Shown here one piece after another: positions 12,510 through 13,600 of a DNA stretch of 64,000 nt. Location: sequence record ON568341.1; one strand, given 5' to 3'. Below the pieces are notes generated by a model. That model saw only the letters and a program-made list of their open reading frames with translations. It was not told where the DNA came from and ran no database searches. The position numbers and the translations under genes are program-made. Origin of the DNA: Escherichia phage UE-S1. The first letter of the stretch is position 1, and every line of letters starts with the position of its first letter.

Positions 12510-12527
12510 TTTAGTGGTAAATATATC

Positions 12528-12555
12528 TTGACTGAAAATAAAAATATGCTATAAT
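12528..12555 (+). promoter_or_regulatory. sigma70-like promoter (TTGACT, 16-nt spacer, TGcTATAAT extended -10)
   Basis: Read directly; followed by an ~115 nt leader with a GAGGC...GCCTC hairpin before the lysozyme gene. Confidence 0.45.
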
Positions 12556-12673
12556 ACTTAAACACTTGAAAATAACGTTTTAGTACTGTAGAAAGTCCGA
12601 TGAGGCTTTTGCAAAATGGCCTCTTTGCCATCTTTGTGATTGCCCCGTCTTAACAATCAACAAAGGAGGCGTT

Positions 12674-13600
12674 TTGAAACAAGCGAAAAAAGCACTGAAA
12701 ACTAAAATTGCCGTAGGCGTATTAGTTTCATCAGCCCTATTCGCTGCTATTGGATTTTATGGTTTTTCACGACATGATCATGTACCATCATTAGACGAAA
12801 GTCAGGTGCATAATTTAAAACCACAGTTTACTCAAATTCAAAAGCAGGAACTTCCAGTGGTGTCAATACCGAAAGAAGTTTCAAGCAGCGAGAAACATTA
12901 TACGGTTCAACCAGGTGATAGTTATTATTCTATTGCTAAAAAGTTTAAGCCTAAAAATGTACAACTTGAAGAGTATGTTATTTTGTTGAAAAATATCAAT
13001 TTAAATGCTACACTTCATACTTCTCAGGGTATCTTTATCCCAACAAAAGAGGATTTGAAAAACATATTATTACCAGATGTGACTGTACTGTTTGATTATA
13101 CTGATCCTGAAATTGTCAATCACATCAAAGAAGCTGAAGGTTCAATTGAATTTCAGTCTAAAAATAAACGCCGTTTACTTGGTGGGCAAGTTGGTGTATC
13201 ATATCGTAATTCTAAATTTTATCCATATCGTGATGTAAAAGGTAACTACACAATTGGGTACGGACATTACCTTGGAAGGAATGCTTCAGATGCAAGTAAA
13301 TATCGCAATGGAATTACTAAATCGCAAGCACATGAACTTTTATTGTCTGATATGGAACGAATTAATAATGATTTAATTTTATTATTGAAGAAAAGAAATG
13401 CAACAAACCTTACGGTTGAACAACAAAGAATTTTATTTGAGATGGCATTTACTTTAGGTGTTGATAAATTAAACACTTTCAACAAACTATGGAAAAGTGT
13501 TGAAAATCAAAATTACAACAAGTTCAAAAAAGAAATTAAGAATTCTCTATGGTATCGACAAGTTGGAAACCGTGCAGAATTGTTGTTAAGTTCACTCTAA
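12674..13600 (+). CDS. membrane-anchored LysM-domain lysozyme (T4 lysozyme-like GH24 catalytic domain; SAR-endolysin-like)
   Basis: TTG start 4 nt after AAAGGAGG; Gly/Ala/Ser-rich N-terminal TM AVGVLVSSALFAAIGFYGF; LysM-like YTVQPGDSYYSIAKKF; GNYTIGYGHYL and WYRQVGNRAELL parallel T4 lysozyme GYYTIGIGHLL and WYNQTPNRAKRV. Confidence 0.7.
   Translation: MKQAKKALKTKIAVGVLVSSALFAAIGFYGFSRHDHVPSLDESQVHNLKPQFTQIQKQELPVVSIPKEVSSSEKHYTVQPGDSYYSIAKKFKPKNVQLEEYVILLKNINLNATLHTSQGIFIPTKEDLKNILLPDVTVLFDYTDPEIVNHIKEAEGSIEFQSKNKRRLLGGQVGVSYRNSKFYPYRDVKGNYTIGYGHYLGRNASDASKYRNGITKSQAHELLLSDMERINNDLILLLKKRNATNLTVEQQRILFEMAFTLGVDKLNTFNKLWKSVENQNYNKFKKEIKNSLWYRQVGNRAELLLSSL

Follow-up and report, generated by a model that had tools for sequence, protein, structure and literature searches.

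A conserved leader RNA precedes the gene for a predicted membrane-anchored lysozyme in RaK2-like jumbo phages

A lysozyme gene with a TTG start codon

We analyzed a stretch of 64,000 nucleotides from Escherichia phage UE-S1 (sequence record ON568341.1), which we will call the window. Our subject is a gene for a 308-residue lysozyme with a predicted membrane anchor, together with the structured leader RNA in front of it. The window comes from a jumbo myovirus of the RaK2-like group, and this coliphage resembles those of the genus Asteriusvirus. Across positions 12400-13700, its nucleotide identity is 92.8% with ph0011, an Escherichia phage of the genus Asteriusvirus, and 81-88% with some 30 other genomes of that genus. 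The gene has these parts:

12674..13600, + strand: lysozyme gene, 308 amino acids, encoding a membrane-anchored LysM-GH24 protein (from the open reading frame, Pfam, and orthologs)
12662..12676, + strand: Shine-Dalgarno sequence AAAGGAGG (12662-12669) and TTG start codon (12674-76), read from the sequence
12707..12766, + strand: transmembrane segment, residues 12-31 (from hydrophobicity and charge analysis)
12890..13042, + strand: LysM peptidoglycan-binding domain, residues 73-123 (from a marginal match to PF01476 and the AlphaFold2 fold)
13100..13597, + strand: GH24 T4-type lysozyme domain, residues 143-308 (from Pfam, alignment, and AlphaFold2 with Foldseek)
13136-38, 13232-34, and 13250-52, + strand: codons for the catalytic residues Glu155, Asp187, and Thr193 (from alignment)

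The original prediction for this locus had described a Gly/Ala/Ser-rich N-terminal transmembrane segment, a LysM-like motif, a GH24 core with about 20 extra residues between the catalytic Glu and Asp, a TTG start after a strong ribosome-binding site, a sigma-70-like promoter, a leader of about 115 nucleotides with a hairpin, a distant spanin-like pair, and no adjacent holin. Every one of these features is present. The interpretation that came with them fared less evenly: its reading of the domains is correct and its suggestion of translational control is supported, but the resemblance to signal-arrest-release (SAR) endolysins and the "early-type" label for the promoter hold only in part, as explained below.

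We located the start codon of the lysozyme gene at 34 loci. Asteriusvirus, GAP32-like, and Eneladusvirus phages start the gene with TTG, while SE_PL-like phages, EJP2-like phages, and two distant lineages start it with GTG. Only RaK2-like phages use ATG. (Among the 68 annotated neighbor genes in ph0011, 65 start with ATG.) In the window, the Shine-Dalgarno sequence (SD) ends 4 nucleotides 5' of the TTG. Three family database entries (P0002, P0003, and P0006) have longer proteins of 317-319 amino acids, with a gene call that begins upstream and runs in frame through the Shine-Dalgarno sequence (MLTTNKGGVL...). The conserved TTG, rather than those upstream starts, is likely to be the true start.

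A T4-type lysozyme with a LysM domain

The protein spans PHROG 15410 from end to end. Residues 184-298 match the Pfam family Phage_lysozyme (PF00959; 40.8 bits, with a cut-off of 22.3), and a phmmer comparison to structures of T4 lysozyme gives an E-value of about 2e-7. The match to LysM (PF01476) is marginal and partial (21.5 bits against a cut-off of 20.9, for profile positions 1-17 only). In an AlphaFold2 model built from the family alignment, residues 73-308 have a predicted local distance difference test (pLDDT) score above 90. The LysM part of this model, residues 75-121, has the order beta-alpha-alpha-beta (strand 75-77, helix 84-91, helix 98-108, and strand 119-121), again with pLDDT above 90. 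The best Foldseek matches are T4 lysozyme chains (TM-score of 0.63-0.66, normalized to T4 lysozyme, across about 172 columns). Residues 1-72 have pLDDT below 50, which fits a helix followed by a disordered tether. The tether between the transmembrane segment and LysM is about 40 amino acids in the window and varies from 30 to 60 among homologs.

We then compared the catalytic residues. Glu155, Asp187, and Thr193 are the equivalents of Glu11, Asp20, and Thr26 in T4 lysozyme. Asp187 and Thr193 were matched to their T4 counterparts by alignment, and Glu155 was placed by a conserved AEG motif that ends the first helix of the domain (residues 145-156 in the model). Glu155-Gly156, Asp187, and Thr193 are invariant in 32 aligned homologs, down to 35% identity. 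The spacing from Glu to Asp is 32 residues instead of the 9 in T4 lysozyme, so the family has a 23-residue insertion, which is conserved; 13 of its residues are common to two other GH24 paralogs of the same phages. The protein contains no cysteine. We predict that it is an active muramidase of the T4 type; the evidence for activity is indirect, namely the toxicity of an ortholog and the activity of a paralog (both described below).

The architecture of this protein is not new. Its orthologs (50-96% identity) include CBB_187, 121Q gp532, GAP32 gp180, RaK2 gp506, and phAPEC6 gp293. Buttimer et al. 2017 listed a transmembrane segment, a LysM-like part, and a lysozyme part in CBB_187 and named the proteins of 121Q, GAP32, and RaK2 as homologs (PMC5259590). 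CBB_187 and its relatives share the architecture and the genome neighborhood of the window's gene, and we see no difference at the protein level. The same authors proposed that CBB_187 is an endolysin, remarked on its likeness to SAR enzymes, and reported that its induction inhibited the growth of E. coli (data not shown in that paper; PMC5259590). Their description is in silico and does not mention the non-ATG start, the leader RNA, or the insertion between Glu and Asp (PMC5259590). What is new here is a conserved, bistable leader RNA together with a conserved non-ATG start.

Some records annotate the gene product as a virion protein or tail lysozyme. This can be rejected: by mass spectrometry, phAPEC6 gp293 was not among the 62 virion proteins, while gp241, a 96-kDa member of the lysozyme family, was (PMC7247149).

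Predicted membrane insertion and export

The N-terminus is rich in lysine (MKQAKKALKTK, with a net charge of +5) and is followed by the transmembrane segment. (The AlphaFold2 model places a helix at residues 3-22, with low confidence.) All 32 aligned homologs keep both the helix and the positive N-terminus. By the positive-inside rule, the predicted topology has the N-terminus inside and the C-terminus outside. The lysine-rich N-terminus and the single hydrophobic helix would insert into the inner membrane in this orientation, and the host's Sec system would export the muramidase without any holin. The disordered tether of 30-60 residues and the LysM domain would then let the GH24 domain reach and hold peptidoglycan.

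The SAR endolysins P1 Lyz, R21 of phage 21, and gp45 of phiKMV are reportedly exported in a similar way: they also have an N-terminal hydrophobic segment and holin-independent, Sec-dependent export of a GH24-type muramidase. If the window's protein were a canonical SAR endolysin, it would accumulate in a tethered, inactive form until the action of a holin or pinholin on the membrane potential freed and activated it, and its release, rather than its translation, would set the timing. The window's own segment is Gly/Ala/Ser-rich and does resemble SAR domains in composition and in its marginal hydrophobicity. Its best 19-residue stretch, IAVGVLVSSALFAAIGFYG, is 47% Gly/Ala/Ser/Thr and has a summed Hessa value of +1.15, as compared to +0.46 for P1 Lyz and +0.78 for R21. 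This kind of enzyme was also suggested in the CBB study (PMC5259590).

Nevertheless, several observations argue against this alternative. First, many homologs have a Leu-rich segment (LVGFLLLAAAIGF) that is as hydrophobic as a stable anchor, with values down to -3.0 and 32-37% Gly/Ala/Ser/Thr. (On this scale, which is a simple sum, the family ranges from -3.0 to +3.5, with 32-47% Gly/Ala/Ser/Thr.) So, "typical of SAR endolysins" describes the composition of the window's segment but not many of its relatives. Second, the N-terminal charge of +5 in the window should hinder escape from the membrane, as tagging experiments on TMD1 of the pinholin reportedly suggest. Third, in SAR endolysins the transmembrane segment directly adjoins or forms part of the catalytic domain, so its release can refold or uncage the active site. 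Here it ends at residue 31, about 120 residues from Glu155, with the tether, the LysM domain, and a second linker in between. Given this distance and the lack of cysteine, neither of the known ways of activating a SAR endolysin (refolding as in R21, or release from a disulfide cage as in P1) can apply. Finally, we recognized no pinholin nearby. We consider it unlikely that the protein is a canonical SAR endolysin. It differs from that group in its 40-residue tether, its LysM domain and second linker, its lack of cysteine, its strongly positive N-terminus, and the Leu-rich consensus of its family's transmembrane segment.

The N-terminus might instead be a cleavable Sec signal peptide, so that the mature protein would be a soluble periplasmic LysM-lysozyme. 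A precedent would be Lys44 of the oenophage fOg44, which reportedly is also exported by Sec without a holin. (Lys44 is said to come from a phage of a Gram-positive host, to have a cleaved signal peptide, and to belong to another catalytic family.) In most homologs, a charged n-region precedes an h-region rich in Leu, and a run of three Ala residues agrees with the -3/-1 rule and is a possible signal-peptidase site (consensus LLLAAA/IGF, with the slash at the possible cut). But the hydrophobic run of about 20 residues has no polar c-region and extends past the putative cleavage site, and the window's own protein would have Phe or Leu at position -3. Cleavage seems very unlikely to us. In any case, whether the segment is a stable anchor, a SAR domain, or a cleaved signal peptide, the enzyme is predicted to reach the periplasm without a holin, and for its regulation this is what counts.

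A leader RNA that is conserved across genera

The leader and its parts are:

12562..12673, + strand: 5' leader of the lysozyme mRNA, about 112 nucleotides (folding z-score of -2.75)
12588..12598, + strand: block A, GTAGAAAGTCC, 11 nucleotides, the invariant core of the leader (from comparison of leaders)
12602..12623, + strand: hairpin P2, whose lower stem pairs GAGGC (12602-06) with GCCTC (12619-23) (from covariation)
12604-12, + strand: block B, GGCTTTTGC, the 5' half of P2 and alternative partner of A
12610-20, + strand: block C, TGCAAAATGGC, the 3' half of P2 and alternative partner of D
12625..12638, + strand: block D, TTGCCATCTTTGTG, the anti-Shine-Dalgarno site, which can pair with C or with the ribosome-binding region (from duplex energies)

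We compared 23 distinct orthologous leaders. Block A is exactly conserved in Asteriusvirus, GAP32, SE_PL, and pEa_SNUABM_19, whose lysozymes are about 52% identical and whose other intergenic DNA cannot be aligned. It is unique in the 64-kb window. In every RaK2-like record it occurs once per genome, always in unannotated DNA 5' of the lysozyme gene. With this single copy per genome, we rejected a regulon. We also rejected mimicry of a host sequence, as we found no similarity to block A across 5,426 E. coli genomes. A DNA operator with A and B as half-sites does not fit either, as the spacer between them varies from 5 to 8 nucleotides.

We define the leaders as a family by three elements 5' of a gene for a transmembrane-LysM-GH24 protein: block A, with the sequence GUAGAAAGUCC; block B, with the sequence G-R-S-CUUU-(G)-UGC; and hairpin P2. 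The window has all of these, with exact matches to both blocks, so we assign its leader to a conserved family of leader RNAs of RaK2-like jumbo phages, as a divergent member. To search for more members, we trained a covariance model on 11 GAP32-like leaders only and searched 660 kb of DNA. The model found the leader of EJP2 (E = 1.5e-7) and those of the SE_PL group (7.5e-6 to 1.7e-3), and it found nothing in the unrelated DNA that makes up most of the 660 kb. In the window it gave a single match with E <= 1, at 12572-12679 (21 bits, E = 0.35).

In Rfam (release 15), the window's leader has chance-level matches only (E >= 0.35, far under the gathering scores), and the leader region had no match in seven other lineages. 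The leader is a candidate new regulatory RNA because it is compact (about 100 nucleotides), is conserved across genera, and is absent from Rfam. A scan of IMG/VR with a loose pattern returned mostly chance matches: among 80 loci that we examined, out of 120 matched stretches, three had the extended motif, and these were all known orthologous loci.

We also asked about a leader peptide. The reading frame from the ATG at 12600 has 17 codons in the window, 34 in ph0011, and 12 in phAPEC6-type phages, in differing frames, and it is absent outside Asteriusvirus, so we rejected this candidate. Several deposited genomes do annotate a small coding sequence inside the leader (12600-12653 on the + strand of the window; 273-410 in L202; 268-357 in L204; 273-410 in L205). 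Because length and frame differ among close relatives, these annotations are probably spurious calls on a structured RNA.

Mutually exclusive helices in the leader

Hairpin P2 is supported by covariation. Its lower stem is 97% paired across the leaders. Compensatory changes are seen at two of the four base pairs (CG/AU/UA at one, GC/AU/GU at the other), and a covariation score this high did not arise in any of 500 shuffles. Blocks A and B can also pair with each other. In 18 leaders, the resulting A.B helix is 99.4% paired; it shows a single compensatory change (in RaK2-like phages) plus one-sided changes that are compatible with wobble pairs. A.B and P2 are mutually exclusive because both use the same nucleotides. 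When we forced each of them to form, the two folds differed by 0.7 kcal/mol in the window, and by at most 1.5 kcal/mol in 9 of 21 leaders.

For the 11 GAP32-like leaders, RNAalifold predicts a hairpin 5' of block A (P1), the A.B helix, and a 12-bp helix between the anti-Shine-Dalgarno site and the Shine-Dalgarno sequence (D.SD), with two compensatory pairs in the latter. An alignment of all 23 leaders with MAFFT, followed by RNAalifold, recovers the invariant A.B helix alone because the variable parts misalign. P1 has a fixed position in 19 of the 23 leaders and is formed by at least seven different stems; it is not evident in the window's own leader. In three groups (GAP32-like, SE_PL-like, and Eneladusvirus phages), the upstream gene ends within P1: its UAG stop codon is part of the hairpin's 5' arm (L006 2378-2392, L007 ~2392-2406, and L009 ~2384-2398), so a terminating ribosome would melt P1 just 5' of the invariant block.

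Proposed control of the ribosome-binding site

Block D is complementary both to block C and to the ribosome-binding region, and the same 13 nucleotides of D are used in each case. In the window, the D.C duplex has an energy of -10.4 kcal/mol, and the D.SD duplex has -13.8 kcal/mol. None of 400 shuffles matched the joint result for C, D, and SD (p < 0.0025); for the D.SD duplex by itself, p = 0.01. The joint test was positive in eight other leaders (L031, GAP32, L015, L022, L023, L020, L012, and EJP2; p <= 0.007). The sequence of block D is lineage-specific (CCGUCCUUAUUAUGCAG in GAP32 and ACUCCUGUUGCU in EJP2).

We propose that the TTG start is weak and that block D (12625-38) can cover the ribosome-binding site. 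The helices A.B, B.C (which is P2), C.D, and D.SD would form a chain in which each excludes the next, much like an attenuator that acts on the ribosome-binding site. With A.B and C.D formed, the ribosome-binding site would be free; with B.C and D.SD formed, it would be hidden. The state of the leader might be set by a factor that binds block A, by co-transcriptional folding, or by translation of the upstream gene. The leader is predicted to repress, and synthesis would be throttled at translation because an enzyme of this kind is dangerous once made.

Translational control had been suggested in the original prediction, and it is now supported more strongly than could be seen then, by the non-ATG start across the family, the invariant block, the covariation in the hairpin, and the presence of an anti-Shine-Dalgarno site that can pair elsewhere as well. 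Of the regulatory schemes that we considered, translational control of a self-exporting muramidase is the most likely. For the full proposal, that the gene encodes a Sec-exported, tethered lysis muramidase that is held in check at translation, we would put the chances at about even.

Several points weigh against this proposal. In the window, the covariance model of the GAP32-like leaders scores just 21 bits (E = 0.35). The A.B helix is nearly invariant, so a single compensatory event backs it. The test of C, D, and SD was devised after we had noticed the pattern, and neither the SE_PL-like nor the RaK2-like group passes it. Across the folding ensemble, pairing of the window's Shine-Dalgarno sequence is 0.70, which is not above the 0.78 in dinucleotide shuffles, so this test gives no support for a general occlusion of the site in the window. 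Ensemble pairing is likewise not raised in the SE_PL and RaK2 groups; it exceeds the shuffles solely in six GAP32-like leaders. The ensemble test and the test of C, D, and SD thus differ on whether the ribosome-binding site is hidden, and we let both results stand. A thermodynamic coupling from A.B to release of the Shine-Dalgarno sequence is not reproduced either, as that sequence remains paired in both forced states. Finally, these phages have a second, soluble T4 e-like lysozyme (see below), which could be the real endolysin.

Because thermodynamic folding does not reproduce the coupling, we advance the relay among helices, and its trigger, as speculation. It would need kinetic action or a factor bound to block A. 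More ambitiously, the leader might belong to an undescribed class of phage cis-regulatory RNA, a bistable, attenuator-like relay whose block A is read by a small molecule, by a phage or host protein, or by the upstream ribosome, and which times the translation of a self-exporting muramidase. We view this broader idea as doubtful. As for a riboswitch in particular, what we observe is bistability and an invariant block that is either unpaired or paired in an alternative way.

One other pairing in the window did not hold up. In the minimum-energy fold, the Shine-Dalgarno sequence pairs with AACGUUUU (12574-81), but in WPEC5 and TH47 this partner is replaced by AACAACUG, and the pairing is not conserved.

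Alternatively, the leader might not regulate translation at all. It could be a structure for processing or stabilizing the transcript (the 3' end of an upstream mRNA, or a protective 5' hairpin), or it could be a site in the DNA. In GAP32-like phages, the first nucleotides of P1 are those of the upstream stop codon; the transcription start predicted for RaK2-like phages puts block A at the extreme 5' end of the mRNA; and in the window, as mentioned above, the general test for occlusion is not significant. On the other hand, the loop between A and B, at 5 to 8 nucleotides, argues against a dimeric DNA operator. P1, P2, and D.SD all covary, and D is complementary to the Shine-Dalgarno region in lineage-specific ways. 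Also, the element always accompanies the lysozyme gene and (the ATG of the RaK2-like phages aside) a non-ATG start. A leader without a role in translation is quite unlikely, in our view.

The lysozyme gene e of phage T4 is reportedly under translational control by mRNA structure. The two enzymes have the same T4-type GH24 fold and triad. The ribosome-binding site of the window's mRNA, like that of T4, might pair with the upstream leader: the D.SD duplex points to this, whereas the ensemble pairing of the site is not above that of the shuffles. Unlike T4 lysozyme, which is soluble and needs the holin T, the window's lysozyme is predicted to be membrane-anchored, and its leader has an invariant block and further helices that can form as alternatives. 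Relief of repression in T4 reportedly comes from late transcripts, whose start lies within the hairpin. The window's leader has no late-promoter motif in or near it: neither TATAAATA nor ATAAATA occurs in 12000-13000, and the only TAAATA, at 12518, is 5' of the -35 element. This led us to reject a T4 e-type internal late promoter.

Transcription of the lysozyme gene

The transcription unit has these features besides the lysozyme gene:

12528..12555, + strand: sigma-70-type promoter, with -35 element TTGACT (12528-33), a 16-nucleotide spacer, and extended -10 element TGcTATAAT (12547-55)
13618..13950, + strand: gene for a homolog of the HPF/RaiA-type ribosome hibernation factor (PF02482, S30AE, 41 bits)
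13959..13992, + strand: intrinsic-terminator-like hairpin, AAAGGGACAGA/TCTGTCCCTTT, then TCTT (identified as a hairpin)

The promoter agrees with the consensus at 11 of 12 positions, has the TG extension as well, and is the best promoter-like site in the intergenic gap of 164 nucleotides. A promoter scan alone proves little, because the region has 48 such sites and 54 would be expected by chance. The extended -10 element is invariant in 8 Asteriusvirus genomes, and the -35 element varies (TTGACT, TTGACA, TTGTAA, or TTGATA). The predicted transcription start is near 12562. RaK2-like phages have TTGACA-17-TAAAAT at the equivalent place, and EJP2-like phages also have a TTGACA promoter of their own. 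No such promoter is found in GAP32-like, Eneladusvirus, or SE_PL-like phages, where the upstream gene's stop codon marks the beginning of the leader. So, the description of the promoter as early-type suits Asteriusvirus, RaK2-like, and EJP2-like phages but does not extend to the GAP32-like and SE_PL-like groups.

Directly 5' of the -35 element, at 12518-12525 (+ strand), is GGTAAATA. Its GTAAATA part is kept in all 8 Asteriusvirus leaders that were compared. GGTAAATA agrees with the T4-type late promoter core, TATAAATA, at six of eight positions, but it could equally be an UP-like element.

Downstream, the lysozyme and the HPF homolog are apparently co-transcribed as one operon, because the gap between the lysozyme's stop codon and the HPF gene is just 17 nucleotides and the HPF gene precedes the terminator. 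(There is no terminator between the two genes. The HPF homolog scores 36.3 bits against TIGR00741, which is under that model's cut-off of 40.9.) The hairpin at 13959-13992 is the probable end of this transcription unit. The order of lysozyme, zero to two genes, HPF, and then CCA-adding enzyme is kept in phAPEC6, GAP32, and SE_PL, with one or two genes between the lysozyme and HPF in GAP32 and SE_PL.

Probable role in lysis

The window encodes a pair of spanins:

3535..4214, + strand: i-spanin (3535-3909) and o-spanin (3906-4214), which overlap; the o-spanin has the lipobox LIISGC

The i-spanin matches phrog_1152, an Rz-like spanin (3.7e-27). The pair lies in a block of genes that look early or middle, far from any lysozyme. 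(The lysis genes of T4 are scattered as well.) The lysozyme would contribute to host lysis together with these spanins. We recognized no holin beside the lysozyme gene: none of the small membrane proteins encoded nearby matched a holin family, and no homolog of T4 holin T was found in the 64-kb window or in 84 kb of ph0011 (148 kb in all). The small single-transmembrane proteins at 11753-11884 and 14413-14598 belong to PHROGs with no assigned function.

A 73-residue protein encoded at 10265-10486 (+ strand) has a holin-like shape: two transmembrane helices are predicted, and the C-terminus is charged. The protein falls into PHROG 22328, whose function is unassigned, and its gene directly follows the thymidine kinase gene and precedes a strong hairpin terminator at 10495-10513.

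These phages contain two other GH24 paralogs: a T4 e-like enzyme of 162 amino acids, and the C-terminus of an 887-residue tail lysozyme. The 162-residue type, the closest paralog, includes WAE77176 from ph0011 and LysUE1. Purified LysUE1 showed muramidase activity in vitro and could lyse cells treated with EDTA (PMC12805682). The CBB equivalent of this paralog was not detected in virions (PMC5259590). This paralog is 36% identical to the window's lysozyme across the GH24 domain and shares 13 amino acids of the insertion between Glu and Asp. Unlike the window's lysozyme, it has no transmembrane segment, tether, or LysM domain. Its gene is about 60 kb away, outside the window, in the baseplate module and beside the gene for the 887-residue tail lysozyme. 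There are two candidate endolysins in these phages.

Accordingly, we considered a division of labor in which the soluble 162-residue paralog is the endolysin and the anchored enzyme does not act in lysis. It would instead be made early and at a low level to remodel or bind the wall, by loosening peptidoglycan, interfering with septation, or excluding superinfecting phages. The gene's surroundings fit this idea. A host-type promoter is found here in Asteriusvirus and RaK2-like phages, the neighbors are of early or middle type (thymidine kinase, HPF, CCA-adding enzyme, and NUDIX), and co-transcription with the HPF homolog is apparent. The combination of a transmembrane segment and LysM also recalls the division inhibitor YneA (a weak match, at the level of LysM). 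The paralog's activity in vitro (PMC12805682), and the absence of its CBB equivalent from virions, would suit an endolysin. But the catalytic triad of the anchored enzyme is invariant, and induction of its ortholog is toxic (PMC5259590). The early-looking region also contains the genes for the spanins. Tight translational repression suits a lethal enzyme, and the 162-residue paralog is encoded within the baseplate module, beside the tail lysozyme. On balance, a purely non-lytic role is improbable.

Implications

If the anchored muramidase is indeed held in check at translation, this would bear on how RaK2-like phages time lysis. The gene is the published candidate endolysin of the RaK2 group, and it reportedly could not be cloned. 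A self-exporting enzyme needs to be controlled before export, and both the conserved leader and the conserved weak start codon suggest the place where this may happen. The leader offers a short list of nucleotides to mutate, may explain the reported cloning toxicity, and could be used to keep the translation of toxic genes tightly switched off. If the relay is real, then the lysis clock of RaK2-like jumbo phages would be set by translation of the endolysin, not by a holin.

Other genes in the neighborhood

The gene upstream of the lysozyme leader (12099-12509, + strand) weakly resembles the "Swiss Army Knife" domain of 2H phosphoesterases (PF22547), at 22.7 bits, which is under the cut-off. 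Its product is 55% identical to GAP32_178. In GAP32-like phages, an additional gene, gp179, separates this gene from the lysozyme leader.

Further upstream, the window has a nucleotidyltransferase gene at 1713-3481 (+ strand; 3291-5063 in L001), and the next gene is annotated as a carrier-domain protein in ph0011. A Dps-like "starvation-inducible DNA-binding protein" is encoded at about 6786-7226. Together with the nucleotidyltransferase and carrier-domain genes, it is unusual cargo for a phage.

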